The position numbers and the translations under genes are program-made. DNA of 64,000 nucleotides. It comes from a virus. Its lineage: Duplodnaviria; Heunggongvirae; Uroviricota; Caudoviricetes. The notes under the pieces are model-generated. The model saw only the letters and a program-made list of their open reading frames with translations. It did no database searches and was not told the DNA's origin. The number at the start of each line of letters is the position of its first letter. Position 1 is the first letter of the stretch. The stretch lies in the IMG/VR virus record IMGVR_UViG_2645727901_000008, one strand, 5' to 3'. Positions 10,950 to 64,000 of the stretch are shown piece by piece.

Positions 10950-11567
10950 TCATTTTTGTCGGATCTTTTCCAGCATATTTAATTCATTATCACTTTCTGC
11001 TGCTGAGACGGTTGGCCTCACATTTCCGAAATATTTCCTGTGAGACTCATGACTTATGTATTCACCGACAGTTTCATTCTTGAATATACGAATTTGACAT
11101 ATGCGAGATCCAACAATAAGTTCTACAGGGCTATTCCCATGATTAAATAACTCTAAAGATATACAGCCTCTGTACCCTGGTTGTATCATGGTATTTAATG
11201 AAAGACCAAGCCTTGTATAGCTGCTTCTGGACAATACATCAGCGTAGCAATCTGGTGGCAAACAAACATATTCTAATGTTGTTGCCAGTACCACTTGATT
11301 CGGGTAAACAATGAATCTATCCCCAAGATCTCTCCTTGTTTCCTGGAAAAATGTTCTGATTGGTTGATGAGTATCATTGTTTTTTGATGGAATTAACTCT
11401 ATTGACGGCTTCCTTGTCATAATAGACACTAAAAAATCGTAACCAAGTCTAAGGTCTATGGTGAAGTTCCCAATTTGGTTTTTATTTAGAAGAGGTTCAA
11501 TGAACAACGACTCAGGTTCTTCTGATTCATAATATTGCAGCAATTCAGCTTTGCTTAGGAGATTCAT
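10950..11567 (-). CDS. dCTP deaminase-fold (Dcd/dUTPase-superfamily) protein
   Basis: IDLRLG, VYPNQVVLATTLEYVCLP, SSYTRLGLSLN and QPGYRGCISLELFNHGNSPVELIVGSRICQIRIF align motif-by-motif with E. coli Dcd as I recall it; ATG at 11567 overlaps upstream stop (ATGA). Confidence 0.65.
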   Translation of the reverse strand: MNLLSKAELLQYYESEEPESLFIEPLLNKNQIGNFTIDLRLGYDFLVSIMTRKPSIELIPSKNNDTHQPIRTFFQETRRDLGDRFIVYPNQVVLATTLEYVCLPPDCYADVLSRSSYTRLGLSLNTMIQPGYRGCISLELFNHGNSPVELIVGSRICQIRIFKNETVGEYISHESHRKYFGNVRPTVSAAESDNELNMLEKIRQK

Positions 11568-14756: not shown

Positions 14757-15067
14757 ATTGGCAGCCTCCTTTGACTAAGTTAAGGAGCTACCGCGTGAGG
14801 TTCCAATCTCAATGGCGGTAGCACTGACTGGGTTGGAACTACCGGCGTCAAAGGGAACCGGCCTGCCTTTCGGCAGCCCAGCCAGCACTACCATTGATCT
14901 CTGAGCTAAACGCTACGTATGGCTGTGCGATGGCATGACACAAAAAAAGACGCTTTCGGCGTCTGTGTCGCCTTTGACATTATCCGGGGTTCCAATCCCG
15001 GCACCCGTTTTTCTAAGGTGCCGTAGAAATATACCCCACGATAATGCCAGGGCGCAACAGTCAGTAT

Positions 15068-23813: not shown

Positions 23814-24181
23814 TTAATCGTACCAAGCTGGAGCACATCCTCGAATATGCCAGACAGCAGAAGCGCTTTGGTCAGCATTGCAAAATTCCGCCAGGAGATA
23901 TGGTTGAAATCGTGGAGATTGCCATGCGTAAGGCTGGCAACTATCCGGTAACTCCGGATAGTTGGATAAGCTGTAGTGATCGAATGCCTGAAAAGGGCCA
24001 GAACGTGCTTATTTCGGTGAATTTCGATAGCTCTCTGGTTGAACCGCTAATATGCTCCGCACGCTATACCGGAAGCACCTTTCGGCGCGGAGATGCAACG
24101 ATTAAGCCGGGTAATGGTATTGAGCAAGCAACTCACTGGATTCCGCTACCGGAACCGCCGCAGGAGGTTAACCGTGGCTAA
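23810..24181 (+). CDS. Hypothetical protein (123 aa)
   Basis: ORF with stop/start overlap. Confidence 0.45.
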   Translation: MINRTKLEHILEYARQQKRFGQHCKIPPGDMVEIVEIAMRKAGNYPVTPDSWISCSDRMPEKGQNVLISVNFDSSLVEPLICSARYTGSTFRRGDATIKPGNGIEQATHWIPLPEPPQEVNRG

Positions 24182-25153: not shown

Positions 25154-25758
25154 CCAGAATCACTGAAGAGCGTATATCAGAGATTATTTCCCGTATCGAA
25201 ATGTATGGTCACGGAGCTGGATATACGGCAGATGAAGTATTGGAAATAGCCCAGCAGATGCTGGCCTTGAGACAAAAAGAGCAACATGAAAGTAATACGT
25301 GTAGATTGAATTTTGAGCAGTGGCTGGAACAGCAACGCGGGAAAATCGATGTGGACTGTGGTTGTGTGTCCACTGAAACATTCATGCACTGGCTGCGGGT
25401 AGCTTACGAGGCTGGCAACTATCCGGATATTCCGGATAGTTCGGCGCAAGCACCAGGGAAGGGGGGGTTCCCCGGAGAGCGGATCCGAATTAAGCCGCAT
25501 GTTTACCGTGAACTGGTTAACCGCCTCCACGATACAGCGATCAAGTGTGCTGGCACCCAGCAATTACGGGAAAGAATTAGCCGCGTTTTGGGCGAAGTTA
25601 TTACACCAGATCGTCATAAACAAGCCGAGAAAAGCGGCCTGGAAAGGAGTCATCTTGAGGCGGCATTAAACATTAAACCGGGGCATACGCTAGGTGTCAT
25701 TGATGCCATGTTGGTTCATGAAATGGCTAAGGCGTTATTGCCACTGGAGGCTGATTAA
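25135..25758 (+). CDS. Hypothetical protein (207 aa) sharing a segment with ORF 16419-17042
   Basis: HVYRELVNRLHDTAIKCAGTQQLRERI resembles HIYRELVNALRDVAIECHGTDQLRARL. Confidence 0.45.
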   Translation: MAQKEMTRITEERISEIISRIEMYGHGAGYTADEVLEIAQQMLALRQKEQHESNTCRLNFEQWLEQQRGKIDVDCGCVSTETFMHWLRVAYEAGNYPDIPDSSAQAPGKGGFPGERIRIKPHVYRELVNRLHDTAIKCAGTQQLRERISRVLGEVITPDRHKQAEKSGLERSHLEAALNIKPGHTLGVIDAMLVHEMAKALLPLEAD

Positions 25759-30079: not shown

Positions 30080-30420
30080 CGACGCCCCCTTGCAGGATAT
30101 CGACCTGCATCAGTATCCGGTGCGATAAAGCCGGTAGTGGGGCGAGTGAAAGCGAGATTAATCTTCTCGACCATAGTGCGATAATTTTCCTGATAGTGGG
30201 CCAGGAGTTTTTCGGCGGCAATGATGGTTACTTTCCGGACGTAGCTTTCTGCTTCCTCCAGATTTCGCCAGTTTTTTTCGAGGGTAAACACAGGGACGGC
30301 CTCAAGCCCGGTCATGATGCCGAATACAACGACAGCATGACTGTTCTTAACACCAGCAGCGAAGGTTACGGTGTAACCATCCACCTTAAAGCGTCTTGAT
30401 TCCGTGATTTGACTCTGCAA
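30076..30420 (-). CDS. Hypothetical protein (114 aa), TTG start in track
   Basis: ORF; start codon at 30420 is TTG. Confidence 0.4.
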   Translation of the reverse strand: MQSQITESRRFKVDGYTVTFAAGVKNSHAVVVFGIMTGLEAVPVFTLEKNWRNLEEAESYVRKVTIIAAEKLLAHYQENYRTMVEKINLAFTRPTTGFIAPDTDAGRYPARGRR

Positions 30421-37761: not shown

Positions 37762-37837
37762 TGGTGGCCCCTACCGGACTTGAACCGGTGACCGTGCGAT
37801 TATGAGTCGCCAGCTCTAACCACTGAGCTAAAGGGCC
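37762..37837 (-). tRNA. tRNA-Ile2 (anticodon CAU, ileX-like; would be read as Met without lysidine context)
   Basis: Reverse complement GGCCCTTTAGCTCAGTGGTTAGAGC...GACTCATAATCGC...GGTTCAAGTCC...GGGGCCACCA nearly matches E. coli ileX. Confidence 0.85.
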
Positions 37838-37848
37838 AATTAGTGTTT

Positions 37849-37962
37849 TATTTTCGACGCCTGAGATTCTTCGCGACTTGTTCTACGCCGTATACGATCA
37901 CAAGTAGAAACAGCAAAAACCATCCAGGGTTCTTATCGATATACGTCCAAAAATCCATCATG
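37849..37962 (-). CDS. Possible small membrane peptide (about 37 aa)
   Basis: Translation MMDFWTYIDKNPGWFLLFLLVIVYGVEQVAKNLRRRK. Confidence 0.25.
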
Positions 37963-38120
37963 AGTTCCTGAACGCACCTTCAATAATCGGCAATAGCAAT
38001 ACCACAGCTACTGAAACTAATGCCCCATCAGCCAACACCGACATCACTTTGCTGGTGAAATCCACCAGTACGGACAAAACGAGAAAGCCAATGGCGCCCG
38101 CAATACGCGCCTTGCCAATC
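37959..38120 (-). CDS. Possible small membrane protein (about 53 aa)
   Basis: Translation MIGKARIAGAIGFLVLSVLVDFTSKVMSVLADGALVSVAVVLLLPIIEGAFRNS. Confidence 0.25.
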
Positions 38121-38121
38121 A

Positions 38122-38577
38122 TTACAGATAATCTTCCACACGAAGGCCAAGACGGCGACCAACCTCTTCCAGAACCTTATGCTCCGCAGGTTCGATTTCA
38201 CCATCTGCTTCAGCGATCGTGAGCATGTTCACGAAGACTTCTTCCGCTTCTTTGGGATCGTTTTTGATATCTTCAATTTCGCGGAGGATATTCATGCGAC
38301 CAACACGGAAACCAGCTTCCAGTTGCTCAGTAAAACGGGTGATTGTTGCGGTAATTTCGTTGCCAAAATGACTTAAGCGAGGATTAGAGCGGACAAGCTG
38401 ATCAAGTTTCGCTGTTTCTTCCTTTTCGATTTCACCATCTGCGGCAGACACCAGCAAACAGCCACCGATGATGGCCTCCATCAGATCGCGATTCTCAACC
38501 CTTTTCAGCTCTACTTTTGCTGAAGCGACTTTCTTACCGAAAAATTTACCGAACATTGGTTTTCCCTCAATAAACAT
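38122..38577 (-). CDS. TerB-like (tellurite-resistance family) protein; start may be ATG at 38556
   Basis: Repeated helical ...ADGEIE... segments typical of TerB-like proteins; GAGGGAAAA RBS before the internal ATG. Confidence 0.5.
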   Translation of the reverse strand: MFIEGKPMFGKFFGKKVASAKVELKRVENRDLMEAIIGGCLLVSAADGEIEKEETAKLDQLVRSNPRLSHFGNEITATITRFTEQLEAGFRVGRMNILREIEDIKNDPKEAEEVFVNMLTIAEADGEIEPAEHKVLEEVGRRLGLRVEDYL

Positions 38578-38823
38578 GACGTATTTATTAGGTTGCGGTG
38601 CCTGGTGCCTCCAGGTGACGTTAACCAGTTAACAATTAACGCCGGGATTTTTGTCTTCACAATTAAGGAGGATTGTTTTAACTGTTCCGCGTGCGCTTAG
38701 CCGCATTCACCGCAATGGTAAGAGCACTTGGCTGGCTGGGCGGCGATGACGCCTGTACGCATTTGGTGAACCGGTTCTGCTTCCGGCATTCGCTTAATTA
38801 GCCAAATACTCTTAACGTTGCAC

Positions 38824-38910
38824 TGGCGGAGAGTAATGGAATCGAACCATCATCGCTTGCGCAATGGGACGGTTTTCAAGACCGCTTGAGCACCATGCTC
38901 CCTACTCTCC
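38824..38910 (-). tRNA. tRNA-Ser-like (anticodon UGA, long variable arm), atypical D-arm
   Basis: 7-bp acceptor GGAGAGT/ACTCTCC, anticodon loop CTTGAAA, T-loop TTCGATT, encoded CCA; folded by eye. Confidence 0.5.
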
Positions 38911-39045
38911 CGTTATTGTGGCGACCGGTGCTGATCTCCGGCTTGCGGTTATTTCAGACTCTCACGGGCGTTTAATTGCCCCGCCGAACAGCTCTTTTCC
39001 GCAATAGCTGCAATGTCTTTCGCGCATCAGCCTGCGCATTCACCA

Positions 39046-39135
39046 CAATGTTGAGAACACTGGTTGTCACGCTGCAACGCAACATTTATTCGTAGATTGG
39101 GATATGACCCCGTTACGCCAGTGTTCTCAACGTTG
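39046..39135. repeat. 18-bp inverted repeat CAATGTTGAGAACACTGG ... CCAGTGTTCTCAACGTTG flanking about 54 bp
   Basis: Read from sequence; one mismatch between arms. Confidence 0.55.
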
Positions 39136-39283
39136 TAGTGCCGGTTACGGTTCCGGCCAGGCCTCTTCCTCAACGGGTTGTTCTCCATACGGACTACCGT
39201 TTATTGGTCGTTCCTGCGGTTTATGTTGTGAAGCCAGATGCTTATCTTCTGGTTGCTTCAAAGAGCTGCACTTCATCACAACG

Positions 39284-39356
39284 GTAAGGGTACTTCGTAG
39301 GGATTCGAACCCTCTGCCAAGCACGGCGATCTCCGACGTCGCAAAATACCCTTACC
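39284..39356 (-). other. tRNA-like element with T-arm (GGGTTCGAATCCC) and 10-bp closing stem but no canonical anticodon arm; possible tRNA pseudogene
   Basis: Folded by eye; T-loop present, cloverleaf incomplete. Confidence 0.25.
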
Positions 39357-39364
39357 TGTTGCGT

Positions 39365-39440
39365 TGGTGCCGATTAACGGGATCGAACCGCTGACCATTC
39401 GCTTACAAAGCGACTGCTCTACCAACTGAGCTAAACCGGC
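39365..39440 (-). tRNA. tRNA-Thr (anticodon UGU)
   Basis: Reverse complement GCCGGTTTAGCTCAGTTGGTAGAGC...CTTTGTAAG...GGTTCGATCC...CGGCACCA. Confidence 0.85.
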
Positions 39441-39444
39441 AATT

Positions 39445-39531
39445 TGGTGGGGAGTGATGGAGTCGAACCACCCGAGTCGCAATGACAGTAGATTTACAGT
39501 CTACCCCGCTACCCCTACGGACTAACTCCCC
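39445..39531 (-). tRNA. tRNA-Tyr-like (anticodon GUA, class II long variable arm)
   Basis: Acceptor GGGGAGT/ACTCCCC, anticodon stem-loop GTAGA-CTGTAAA-TCTAC, T-loop TTCGACT, encoded CCA. Confidence 0.6.
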
Positions 39532-39536
39532 TAAAG

Positions 39537-39612
39537 TGGCGATGGTGGGTGGATTCGAACCACCGACCGACAGCTTAGAAGGCTGCTGCTCTATCCTACT
39601 GAGCTACACCAT
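39537..39612 (-). tRNA. tRNA-Arg (anticodon UCU)
   Basis: Reverse complement GATGGTGTAGCTCAGTAGGATAGAGC...CTTCTAA...GGTTCGAATCC...CACCATCGCCA. Confidence 0.85.
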
Positions 39613-40853
39613 CACTTGCCGGGTACGTCTCCGGCGAGGGCTTCCACCTCCGTATGCTTTTCGGCGCACCGCGCCCTGGCTGCAATTCAGTAACAGGGGA
39701 TGCATAACCCTGGCTTCCAGCGTGATTAGCGCCTTCAGCATGACGGGATATACCCGTAACCAACAAACTTTCCCATATACCATCAAACAATGGCTGTTAC
39801 GCGGGAGGGACGTAACAGGTAAGGGCGCTGACCAGAAAGACCTGACCCTTCTCATTCATCTGGTTAATCACACCAGCGCCCTTGCCTGTTATGTCTCCCC
39901 GTTCCCTAATACACAGACGGGGACACTCTGCGGTCGATTTTTTGACGGGGGACGACTCATACCCCGTGGCGTCTGGCTTCTTAGGCCGCTACCATCATCA
40001 GATCATCGTTTGCATTTACTTTAATGGTCGGTTTCTAAACCGCCGCAAAGCCGCTAACCATGACGAAAACCCTAAAAAAGCCCACCCGAAGATGGGCAAA
40101 TACGCTACATCTCACACAAGAAAGAAGCCGACTGCCTGAGCTGGATTCACTTTCAAATGCCCGCAGAAAGGGAACACAAGTCGGCTTCTTTCTTGATGCG
40201 GCACTCTCTCCGCCCGTCACCGTTCTGTCTCGGTTGTCGCGTTTGCCACGCCAGCCGTAACGAGGTTTAAAGTCTTTGCACGTTTCCATCACTCGACTGC
40301 CGTCTGTGGCTGTTCGTTGCAGCGGGGGTGCCTCCCCCTGGGGATATCCCCGGCCTTACCCCATTCTTTCAAGACACAATGCAAGGCCGCATCCGCATAG
40401 GTGCATTACCGCAACATTAAGGAGACTTAGGGCAAAAGGTAATCGCCACAAAAAAAATCCCTATGCCTCCTTAATGTTGAGGATGTGCATTGATGATGAT
40501 TCGATGCGGCGAGTCCCGTTACTCTCTGCCGGACCATCATCAATGAACATCTTAAAAAGACCTTCCGTGGCTCAACATGTCTTGTCGTTTACTCCGTAAA
40601 GTGCTCTCTCTGAAACCACTTTACGCACTAAACCTGCTGAACTTTGGCTTGCTCGGTGCCAAAGCGAGTCCCTGTATGTATGTAATTTTCTAACACTTTA
40701 ATTTGTTATTTGCTGGTGGGCGAACAACAACCAATAAGTGACTATCAAGCCCAGCAAGCGAAATGTGGCAACGCTCCACCAGCAAGGAAAATTCTAAGTT
40801 AAGTTACTCTCACAATCAATACGTTCGTTTAGTGAAATTAGATTTCTAACATT
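39613..40853. other. About 1.2 kb without a convincing CDS; rich in long-loop inverted repeats
   Basis: Only short, overlapping ORFs in all frames; 13-bp inverted repeat CAACATTAAGGAG...CTCCTTAATGTTG around 40408-40478 and others. Confidence 0.4.
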
Positions 40854-52692: not shown

Positions 52693-53022
52693 AGTTACGG
52701 CCTCACTAACAGGTTTAACAACCTGCTACCCGCTGCTAAACAGGTGGCAGGACGTGACGGGGTTAGCAGACTGGCGTTAGTGAAACCAGCAGGCCGAAGC
52801 CTCCCCATCACGCCCCACCATAATTTGGGCGTAACGCGGTTTTACGGACACAAAAATACCGCAATATCGGATATCTGCGGTTGTCCGCACTAACATTCAG
52901 GCTGCTAAACCCGGTCGCAGAATTTGCTACGACGACATGAATATAAGCCTGAAAACATGGAAGATCAACTAAAAATTTCAGCAATAGATGACTTCAGTCG
53001 ATGATGCAGATCATACATTCCG

Positions 53023-62489: not shown

Positions 62490-62910
62490 GCTTTTCGATC
62501 GTAAACTGGCGCTCTATGCAGTCATTGATAGGGAAAATGCGATAAAGCGGATTCAGTCGACAGTTACCGTTAGTCAATGTGACTTTCAGATCCCACTTCG
62601 TTGGCTCAAGATATTTCGTATCGATGAGCAAATACTCTTCTCTCTCACCGCGTTTTGAGGCGTCAACTGGTCGCGTTTTCCCTGAAATAACCACAGATGG
62701 ATTTTTCAGGTCTTGCAACCAATATTCGATTTGAGCATTGCTGACCCAGCTTCGCTTAACACGTAGCGAAACAGGAAATGCTATAGCGGATTCTTTCACT
62801 ACAGCGTCACCAATACTCAAAATCTCAACACTCTTGCGACGAAAAATGAAACGGTCAATGATGGCAACAAATGCCATGATAAAAATGAAATAATTTCCAA
62901 AGTTACCCAT
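62464..62910 (-). CDS. lydB: LydB-like antiholin (by size and position)
   Basis: 148 aa with N-terminal hydrophobic segment; coupled to the holin-like gene. Confidence 0.45.
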   Translation of the reverse strand: MGNFGNYFIFIMAFVAIIDRFIFRRKSVEILSIGDAVVKESAIAFPVSLRVKRSWVSNAQIEYWLQDLKNPSVVISGKTRPVDASKRGEREEYLLIDTKYLEPTKWDLKVTLTNGNCRLNPLYRIFPINDCIERQFTIEKREGDWDVK

Positions 62911-63236
62911 TATTTCTCTCCACCTTTTCCCCCATTCGCTATTACGCTTAAGAGATTCAAGACGTTACTAGCTCTGGACTTCAAGCCCTGTAAAATTTCA
63001 CTACCGTTGTTACTGGCAATCAGAACAACGCAGAAAATGATACCTTCAGGCCATTCTTGGCTAACCGCCACCCCATACCCCGCAAGCCCGGCTGTTACCG
63101 CAGTAAACAATTCACTCGCAAGATTGAGCAGGGACGCAGAAATGCGCCCGTCTCTAACTCCGAGAAGGAATACGCCGGTTCCACTTAGTAGGGATGTTAT
63201 GACTACTACAGCCAGATTTTCATAATCTGCAAACAT
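62910..63236 (-). CDS. lydA: LydA-like holin
   Basis: 108 aa with hydrophobic helices and charged C-terminus. Confidence 0.5.
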   Translation of the reverse strand: MFADYENLAVVVITSLLSGTGVFLLGVRDGRISASLLNLASELFTAVTAGLAGYGVAVSQEWPEGIIFCVVLIASNNGSEILQGLKSRASNVLNLLSVIANGGKGGEK

Positions 63237-63341
63237 ACCCCTCCAGAAATAACATCTAATGCGCCACTAACTTAGTCAGTTTGTTATTTCCTTACAGGAC
63301 ATCTTCTAGAATCTCCCCCCTTAACATACAAGGGGGGACAT

Positions 63342-63902
63342 ATGCTTATTGGATACATTCGCGTATCAACTAATGACCAAAACACCGCTTTACAACGAAA
63401 CGCCCTTGAAAGCGCAGGATGTGAGCTAATTTTTGAGGATAAGGCGAGCGGCAAAAAGGCTGAACGCCCAGGGTTAAAAAAGGTTCTGCGTATTCTTTCC
63501 AGAGGTGACACCCTGGTCGTATGGAAGTTAGATCGTCTTGGGCGCAGCATGCGTCACTTGGTTGTGCTGGTGGAAGAGCTGCGTGACAGAGGCATTAACT
63601 TCCGGAGTCTCACTGACTCCATCGACACCAGTACACCAATGGGGCGCTTTTTCTTTCACGTAATGGGGGCGCTGGCAGAAATGGAACGTGAGCTTATCAT
63701 TGAACGTACACGCGCTGGACTTGATGCAGCTCGCGCAGAAGGTCGTATAGGTGGGCGTCGGCCTAAATACCAAGAAGAAACATGGCAGCAAATGCGGCGA
63801 TTGCTGGAGAAGGGCATCCCTCGTAAGCAAGTTGCAATCATCTATGATGTGGCTGTTTCCACGCTTTATAAGAAGTTTCCGGCATCATCATTTCAATCCT
63901 AA
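63342..63902 (+). CDS. cin: Cin-like serine DNA invertase
   Basis: MLIGYIRVSTNDQNTALQRNALESAGCELIFEDK...VVWKLDRLGRSM...GINFRSLTDSIDTSTPMGRFFFHVMGALAEMERELIIERT matches Cin/Gin/Hin invertases. Confidence 0.85.
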   Translation: MLIGYIRVSTNDQNTALQRNALESAGCELIFEDKASGKKAERPGLKKVLRILSRGDTLVVWKLDRLGRSMRHLVVLVEELRDRGINFRSLTDSIDTSTPMGRFFFHVMGALAEMERELIIERTRAGLDAARAEGRIGGRRPKYQEETWQQMRRLLEKGIPRKQVAIIYDVAVSTLYKKFPASSFQS

Positions 63903-63919
63903 ACCTTGGTTTAAGAGAA
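63894..63919. other. cix/gix/hix-like crossover site CAATCCTAAACC-TT-GGTTTAAGAGAA overlapping the cin stop codon
   Basis: Core TAAACC-NN-GGTTTA resembles gix TAAACC-GA-GGTTTT; read from sequence. Confidence 0.5.
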
Positions 63920-64000
63920 CTCGGTACCAGCGGTGAAAAGATCCCCCTGTTGAGTACGGCTAACACATGGAGTGCGCGCCAGACTTTCAACGGCGGGATC

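Follow-up and report, generated by a model that had tools for sequence, protein, structure and literature searches.

The end of this stretch of viral DNA (64,000 nucleotides, hereafter the window) carries a DNA invertase gene, cin, whose Shine-Dalgarno sequence can be buried in a strong RNA hairpin. The locus raises the question of what switch the gene belongs to, and whether the hairpin controls synthesis of the invertase or is incidental. The switch can be recognized by comparison with phages P1 and D6; the hairpin is the only part of the region that has not been described previously, and a role for it is plausible. Taken as a whole, the region is probably best explained by a Cin/cix inversion switch in combination with the role for the hairpin that is proposed below.

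Identity of the Element and the Invertase Gene

Judged from its sequence, the region is almost certainly the cin-cixL end of a tail-fibre inversion switch in a D6-like plasmid prophage of the P1 family. Positions 63200-64000 match the Escherichia coli plasmid pLD93-1-90kb (NZ_CP047663.1) at 100% identity and phage D6 at 99.4%; with D6, the final 25 kb of the window are collinear over their full length (94.3% identity). D6 is a P1-related phage with a plasmid prophage lifestyle. The genes to the left of cin, all on the minus strand, agree with this picture: lydA (62910-63236), which appears in the open reading frame (ORF) listing and is annotated in D6 and in the plasmid as a holin gene similar to P1 lydA; lydB (Pfam LydB); a gene for an Hdf-like protein; and the gene for DarA (Pfam DarA_N and DarA_C). 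lydA is divergent from cin, and the regulatory spacer between the two genes is 105 bp long (63237-63341). It includes, on the minus strand at 63254-63273, a late-promoter-like element for the divergent lydA operon (AAGTTAGTG, 5 nt, and TTAGAT), which was assigned by its similarity to the annotated P1 element LPdar (AAGTTACTT-TGCA-TACCAT). D6-like plasmids that carry a cin invertase and a tail-fibre inversion region are known from Salmonella and E. coli (PMC6799933).

cin itself (63342-63902, plus strand; ATG at 63342, stop codon TAA at 63900-63902) encodes a Din-family serine DNA invertase of 186 aa, as identified from the ORF listing, Pfam, and identity to P1 and D6. The sequence-only reading of this DNA had called the product a Cin-like invertase, and this identification is borne out: the protein contains Resolvase (PF00239, 5e-51) and HTH_7 (PF02796, 3e-18) domains, is identical to D6 Cin throughout (100%, tblastn), and shares 182 of its 186 residues with P1 Cin (98%). 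The features by which Din-family invertases are recognized (a length of ~190 aa, an N-terminal resolvase domain, a serine near residue 9-10, and a C-terminal helix-turn-helix) are all present, with the catalytic Ser9 (codon 63366-63368) in the motif RVSTNDQ. A putative recombinational (Fis-dependent) enhancer is located inside the gene, at 63360-63431, and was assigned from the homologous stretch annotated in P1 (cin +19 to +90); in the alignment, the region differs from the annotated P1 enhancer at 4 of 72 positions (94% identity). We infer enhancer function and Fis dependence from P1 and Mu. Because the D6 GenBank record already annotates cin, cixL, cixR, and the segment between the sites, the system is known biology of the textbook P1/Mu type, to which nothing new is added here.

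Crossover Sites and Invertible Segment

The 26-bp crossover site cixL (CAATCCTAAACC-TT-GGTTTAAGAGAA) lies at 63894-63919 and is identical to cixL of both P1 and D6. The cixL annotation of the D6 record corresponds to 63897-63916, and the crossover marked in the P1 record falls at the corresponding position. The final two codons of cin and its stop codon lie within the left half-site, and the crossover dinucleotide TT (63906-63907) follows 4 nt past the stop, so that Cin is left unaltered by inversion. The core TAAACC-TT-GGTTTA (63900-63913), which opens with the TAA of cin, is the sole perfect AAACCNNGGTTT within the window. A cix-like site overlapping the stop codon had been proposed from the letters alone, and the identity to P1 cixL across that codon establishes it. 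The 1983 paper on the P1 cin sequence is said to describe the same arrangement of gene end and site.

The partner site, cixR (TTCTCTTAAACC-AA-GGTATTGGATAA), is beyond the window; in plasmid pLD93-1-90kb and phage D6, it is found in inverted orientation ~4.0 kb downstream of cixL. At the pLD93-1-90kb locus that matches the end of the window (L016; window coordinate = L016 coordinate + 56699), cixR occupies 11200-11225 and is identical to cixR of P1 and D6. Each of the two sites is identical across pLD93-1-90kb, D6, and P1, and, read in the same orientation, both have TT as the core; two inverted 26-bp sites of this kind, with 12-bp half-sites around a matching 2-bp core, are characteristic of the Din family. 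In L016, ~4007 bp separate the central dinucleotides. As annotated there and in D6, this segment contains a tail-fibre end and an assembly gene on the plus strand and a second such set on the minus strand; in L016, the constant part of the long tail-fibre gene connects to the minus-strand set. The inverted partner site and the tail-fibre genes to be looked for downstream on the sequence-only reading are thus in place, the latter with chaperone genes, and the absence of an inverted partner, which would have counted against that reading, does not apply.

A 216-bp inverted repeat (repeat I1) begins at 63896 and pairs L016 7197-7412 with 11008-11223, its partner arm ending at cixR. Inward translation yields an identical stretch of 32 residues (LGLRELGTSGEKIPLLSTANTWSARQTFNGGI) from either end of the segment; in the window, this reading runs from 63905 and corresponds to the promoterless alternative tail-fibre part Sv'. 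The start of the segment had been placed just past the window edge; this has to be corrected. The invertible C-type segment begins at the crossover dinucleotide (63906/63907), so that its first 94 bases are the final 94 of the window (63907-64000, plus strand) and are part of the 216-bp repeat.

Related plasmids carry the segment both ways round: the homologous interior of the segment in pLD93-1 is oriented opposite to that in D6 and in plasmid ptetA. In addition, the predicted junction of the flipped state is present in 25 plasmid records. The opposite orientations and flipped junctions in these relatives are indirect evidence that inversion of the segment occurs. Low Cin synthesis would be consistent with a report that the C segment of P1 inverts infrequently (bioRxiv 10.1101/2022.07.24.501295).

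The mechanism of inversion is established for P1 and Mu and is applied here through near-identity. Cin dimers would bind cixL (63894-63919) and the inverted cixR, and a Fis-bound enhancer in the 5' part of cin (63360-63431) would assemble the synaptic complex. Both sites would then be cut at the central TT/AA dinucleotide, and the segment rotated and rejoined. By this means, the variable tail-fibre end and its chaperone (Sv-U or Sv'-U') would be swapped behind the constant part of gene S, and the exchange of tail fibres would alter host range.

A Hairpin Over the cin Shine-Dalgarno Sequence

The leader of cin can form a hairpin at 63314-63338 (plus strand) with a perfect 9-bp stem and a 7-nt loop. 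The 5' arm (UCCCCCCUU, 63314-63322) acts as an anti-Shine-Dalgarno sequence, the loop is AACAUAC (63323-63329), and the 3' arm (AAGGGGGGA, 63330-63338) is the Shine-Dalgarno sequence, ending 3 nt from the ATG. The pairing of TCCCCCC (63314-63320) with GGGGGGA (63332-63338) across an 11-nt spacer (63321-63331), as first noticed in the sequence, was confirmed by folding, and the stem is longer than had been claimed. The hairpin folds with -16.4 kcal/mol (z = -3.57), and none of 200 shuffled sequences folds as well. Opening cost was defined as the free energy required to keep positions -13 to -4 unpaired in an RNA from -60 to +36. For cin this is 16.7 kcal/mol, so the proposed occlusion of the Shine-Dalgarno sequence is supported by folding for any RNA that holds both arms. 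Stability of structure at a ribosome-binding site is inversely related to translation initiation, and the stem must therefore hinder ribosome binding on such RNA.

An occlusion of this strength is rare in the window: the cin value is matched at 4 of 5112 background positions (0.08%), for which the mean opening cost is 4.9 kcal/mol (sd 2.8), and it ranks second of 65 heuristically chosen ORF starts that carry a Shine-Dalgarno-like motif. The window contains ~14 distinct perfect inverted repeats with stems of 9 bp or more and loops of 3-12 nt, vs. ~2.5 expected; the stem alone is thus not unique, and it is the exact position over the ribosome-binding site that stands out. A second copy of the C-run/G-run repeat, as would be expected of an operator family, was not found in the 64-kb window. 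Rfam searches of the whole window, and a permissive run on 63150-64000, gave no match that overlaps the cin leader, cin, or cixL. In a literature search that extended to neither the P1 and D6 genome papers nor the 1983 cin sequence paper, we found nothing on a leader hairpin or translational control of cin or gin; likewise, nothing was found on sigma-54 at pin genes.

Promoter and Transcript Start

Whether the complete hairpin forms depends on where transcription begins. A -10-like hexamer, TAGAAT (63307-63312, plus strand), ends 1 nt before the 5' arm and is a candidate -10 element of a cin promoter. Its first, second, and sixth positions (T, A, and T) are kept across the variants TAGAAT, TAAAAT, TAGGAT, and TAATAT (the last in L006, of the Shigella type), and TAAAAT is annotated in the P1 record as the -10 of the predicted cin promoter. 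From these likenesses we infer that TAGAAT is a promoter element. A sigma-70 consensus scan of the spacer (63237-63341) returned no promoter; the hexamer was not called, and it has no good -35. The only match in the scan (9/12) is a weaker promoter-like sequence inside lydA (63199-63226), and no strong upstream plus-strand promoter that could supply read-through transcription was found by the scan.

A transcript that starts ~7 nt after the hexamer (~63319) would lack most of the 5' arm and retain a 4-bp stem. The computed opening cost is 16.3 kcal/mol for starts at 63314 or upstream, and for starts from 63315 to 63320 it is 14.9, 12.3, 9.2, 6.3, 3.4, and 2.0 kcal/mol, respectively. Positions 63313-63322 are all pyrimidine, with the first purine at 63323. 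Because the hexamer abuts the 5' arm, the full hairpin may form only in RNA that reads through from upstream, which would make it an insulator. In the proposed mechanism, a transcript that includes 63314-63338 would fold into the stem, bury the Shine-Dalgarno sequence, and be translated poorly, and transcripts that start within the C-run would partially escape. Given the position of the -10-like hexamer directly before the 5' arm, the likeliest role of the stem would be to limit Cin synthesis and silence transcripts that read through.

Comparative Evidence From Invertase Leaders

The spacer is present in 110 records of D6-like plasmids. A total of 40 D6-type leaders were gathered from plasmids, viral contigs, and metagenomes; pSa1423-90k (L005) was left out as a variant, as its record is full of single-base deletions. 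Across these 40 leaders, hardly any change is seen in the 76 bases that precede the stem; variation is almost confined to the two arms, where the runs differ (G4 to G7, C5, and C-to-T changes). Such a hot spot in the arms of an otherwise near-invariant 105-bp spacer could reflect a mutable homopolymer just as well as tuning.

Where cin is intact, the arms take the forms C6/G6, C6/G7, C5/G6, CCCTCC/G5, CCTTCC/G6, CCTTCC/G5, and a C6 form in which the loop-closing pair is broken. Every intact-cin D6-type allele sampled retains a stem, with opening costs of 6.8-17.5 kcal/mol, and the two 5'-arm substitutions in these alleles are both C-to-T changes that retain G-U pairing. In the GTATCC/GGGAGA allele, the opening cost is 2.0 kcal/mol, and cin is always frameshifted or truncated; in two further weakened alleles (L013 and L014), cin is apparently a pseudogene too. 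One leader (L126) has a full stem yet a pseudogene cin. This pattern of alleles is consistent with purifying selection on the stem for as long as cin is functional, as seen in only two or three independent lineages. Some of the plasmids with the GTATCC/GGGAGA allele carry a pin-type invertase gene just downstream, in the opposite orientation.

Covariation in the stem was assessed over the 14 distinct alleles, and the counts did not exceed those of shuffles; a single pair has changed on both sides, in an alignment made ambiguous by run-length indels. Viral and metagenome contigs yielded no compensatory variants, only the same allele classes.

Beyond the D6-type leaders, P1 has an unrelated 9-bp stem over its own annotated Shine-Dalgarno sequence, with an opening cost of 9.1 kcal/mol. 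Other invertase genes are intact and have no such stem (P7 cin, 0.4 kcal/mol; Mu gin, 1.2 kcal/mol; Shigella-type cin, 2.6 kcal/mol). Din-invertase leaders (n = 62) average an opening cost of 6.7 kcal/mol, vs. 5.0 kcal/mol with the upstream sequence shuffled (mononucleotide shuffle), and 45 of the 62 are above their shuffled counterparts (Wilcoxon p = 3e-5, with relatedness among the leaders ignored).

Selected or Incidental

A selected function for the hairpin, as a throttle or an insulator, has in our judgment close to an even chance of being right. The more specific proposal, that the stem is an easily mutable, selected throttle on Cin translation that sets the frequency of tail-fibre switching, is an unlikely one by itself; it draws on the graded opening costs of natural alleles (6.8-17.5 kcal/mol, through G4-G7, C5, and C-to-U changes that form G-U pairs) and on the recurrence of unrelated stems that bury the Shine-Dalgarno sequence upstream of P1 cin and many chromosomal Din invertases. 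A serious competitor, to which we give rather less than an even chance, is that the hairpin is incidental and unselected: a G-rich Shine-Dalgarno sequence would by chance lie opposite a C-run in a short spacer that was rearranged upon the loss of lydC, and both runs would keep changing through homopolymer slippage, perhaps with translation somewhat lowered as a side effect. The missing covariation and the concentration of variation in the arms are as this would predict, as are the sequence upstream of cin, which lacks homology to P1 (the alignment given by megablast begins at the cin ATG), the ~14 perfect hairpins of at least 9 bp elsewhere in the window, and the want of a comparable stem in P7, Mu, and Shigella-type cin. 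However, chance does not readily account for an opening cost in the top 0.1% of the window, nor for a stem that is present in all sampled intact-cin alleles and degraded in the main pseudogene allele, with changes in intact alleles that keep pairing through G-U. The analogous stem of P1 and the excess occlusion of Din-invertase leaders as a group also argue against it, and for selection on the hairpin.

Two other explanations concern the same bases in different ways. If transcription could start at any position across the C-run (63315-63320), from 0 to 6 C residues would be added to the transcript and would set the strength of the stem and with it Cin translation, possibly in a CTP-dependent manner, as in pyrC. 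The geometry is that of pyrC/pyrD, with a -10 hexamer and, 6-7 nt on, C residues at the base of a 5' hairpin over the ribosome-binding site (PMC6524683), and the stepwise fall in computed opening cost with start position (14.9 to 2.0 kcal/mol) is what such start choice would exploit. We nevertheless regard this as improbable, since pyrC has a purine start 2-3 nt downstream and the first purine here is at 63323, and since the -10 hexamer is itself a prediction with no convincing -35. Furthermore, we know of no link between nucleotide pools and DNA inversion. It is very improbable that the repeat acts on DNA or at transcript ends, as an operator, a terminator between lydA and cin, or the ribosome-binding site of a small minus-strand ORF. 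Its position in a 105-bp divergent promoter spacer would suit a role of this kind, and P7 has a predicted C1 operator at the equivalent place; but the C-run/G-run repeat has no second copy in the 64 kb, and no Rfam family matches it. On the minus strand, the 5' arm reads GGGGGGAG and stands 10 nt before an ORF (ATGTCCTGTAAGGAAATAACAAACTGA) that is just eight codons long. An intrinsic terminator was rejected: the sequence following the stem is CATATGCTT on the plus strand and GATTCTAGAAG on the minus strand, with a T-run on neither, and a terminator scan made no call.

The invertase, the sites, and the switch were already known, and the hairpin would be of modest importance. If it truly limits Cin synthesis, it would partly explain the rarity of inversion, and it would offer a simple handle for tuning host-range switching in transducing phages and phage-plasmids of the P1/D6 type, which are widespread in E. 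coli and Salmonella. On the less likely reading of the stem as a selected throttle, translational damping or insulation would add a widespread level of regulation, not described to date, to phage host-range switching.

Comparison With Known Systems

The closest known systems are P1 Cin/cix and D6. The protein is 98% identical to that of P1 and 100% identical to that of D6, both crossover sites are identical, cin likewise terminates within cixL, and the gene order is shared (lydA, cin, the segment Sv'-U' / U-Sv, and then Sc-R). Compared with D6, the variable tail-fibre genes have ~88% identity and the opposite orientation. Unlike in P1, the 5' leader is unrelated, and lydC, which separates lydA from cin in P1, is absent here, so that lydA and cin are merely 105 bp apart. 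The stem arms are C6/G6 here and GCUUGCUAU/AUAGUGAGC in P1. Mu Gin/gix and e14 Pin belong to the same invertase family, use the same type of 26-bp site, and likewise switch tail fibres (~77% identity to Mu Gin). In Mu and e14, however, the crossover site precedes the invertase start by ~55-65 bp, and the gene is directed away from the segment, whereas cin is here directed toward the segment and ends in the site; moreover, the Shine-Dalgarno sequence of Mu gin is not covered by a stem (1.2 kcal/mol).

For the hairpin, two precedents come from outside the invertases. At pyrC and pyrD, where the choice of start site is nucleotide-sensitive and controls translation, extra C residues at the 5' end of the transcript allow a hairpin to close over the ribosome-binding site (PMC6524683); the cin leader is similar in having a -10 hexamer followed by C residues that would complete a 5' hairpin if transcribed, but it has no alternative purine start nearby. 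CT-rich anti-Shine-Dalgarno motifs within 25 nt upstream of a ribosome-binding site silence read-through, and pyrimidine-rich motifs of this kind are generally depleted upstream of ribosome-binding sites in genomes (Levy et al., bioRxiv 10.1101/086108). Those insulators occur at sigma-54 promoters and have motifs of 3-5 nt, in contrast to the perfect 9-bp stem and sigma-70-like -10 of cin, which are known here from sequence. As in the insulators, a CT-rich motif pairs with the Shine-Dalgarno sequence and is placed at or before the likely start of transcription.

Variation in the cin Leader

Across the compared loci L001–L030 and L114–L126, which include D6-type leaders, the 105-bp lydA–cin spacer is nearly invariant except at a single hot spot, namely the two homopolymer arms of the hairpin over the cin Shine-Dalgarno sequence (63314–63338). 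The arm variants seen in these loci are G4, G5, G6, G7, C5, CCCTCC, and CCTTCC. Because identical arm alleles were found repeatedly in independent assemblies, sequencing error is an unlikely explanation for them. Nor does uniform drift explain the pseudogene-linked allele (stem arms GTATCC/GGGAGA, found with frameshifted or truncated cin), in which around five of the eight positions of the 5′ arm differ, vs. 0–1 of the 76 positions immediately upstream.

Replacement of cin in Related Plasmids

In one class of D6-like plasmids (L029 6500–7727; also L004, L021, L027, and L030), cin is reduced to its first 12 codons or to a frameshifted copy; the 12-codon remnant sits behind a degraded leader. 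Immediately downstream of the cin remnant, and in the opposite orientation, these plasmids carry an intact pin-type invertase gene, beyond which there is a tail-fibre end. From this arrangement, we infer that the P1-type module has been replaced by a Mu/e14-type module in these plasmids, with a cin stump left behind.

Mu gin and the chromosomal pin/gin-type invertase genes share an invariant TGGCA(T/C), situated between the crossover site and the start codon, approximately 33–36 nt upstream of each invertase start in L031–L093 (Mu, L111 215–233; E. coli e14-type pin, L038 566–584). In approximately 22 of 35 distinct sequences this motif is followed by GC at a GG-N10-GC spacing and then by a T-run, as in TGGCACAATTCTTGCT (L085) and TGGCATCATTCCTGCTTTT (the e14-type locus). 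By its sequence, the TGGCA(T/C)...GC element looks like a sigma-54 -24/-12 promoter; we found no report of such an element in the literature on sigma-54 and pin genes. The window lacks this element.

Other Hairpins and RNA Genes in the Window

The window contains approximately 14 perfect hairpins with stems of 9 bp or longer, vs. approximately 2.5 expected. One perfect hairpin sequence, AACTATCCGG...CCGGATAGTT, is present in two copies approximately 1.5 kb apart (23938–23964 and 25417–25441). Three further Shine-Dalgarno-like ORF starts on the (-) strand, near 30420, 36231, and 59473, have very high opening costs (the computed free energy for keeping positions -13 to -4 unpaired) of 17.3, 16.2, and 15.2 kcal/mol, respectively, for start codons that were picked heuristically.

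An Rfam scan of the whole window gave matches at 14811–14898, 14943–15021, 52740–52825, and 52894–52946, all on the (-) strand. Two of these, scoring 77 and 70 bits, are separate matches to C4 antisense RNA; the first is adjoined by an isrK match and the second by a c4-a1b1 target match, and this pattern suggests that a single element carries two immunity-type antisense loci. Five tRNA genes, for Met, Ser, Thr, Tyr, and Arg, are clustered at 37762–39613 (-).

Comparison With P1

In P1, the annotated Shine-Dalgarno GAG of cin is covered by a different 9-bp stem, GCUUGCUAU/AUAGUGAGC (L002 5970–5995). This stem begins approximately 6 nt past the predicted P1cin promoter's annotated -10 hexamer, TAAAAT, and its opening cost is 9.1 kcal/mol, vs. 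4.0 kcal/mol with the upstream sequence shuffled. The lydA–cin gap of P1 (L002 5527–6002) is approximately 475 bp and includes lydC, whereas that of the window (63237–63341) is 105 bp and is without lydC. The sequence TTTCCTTA at 63287–63294 of the window is also present in P1 directly upstream of the lydC start, and may be a remnant of a P1-type lydC upstream region.
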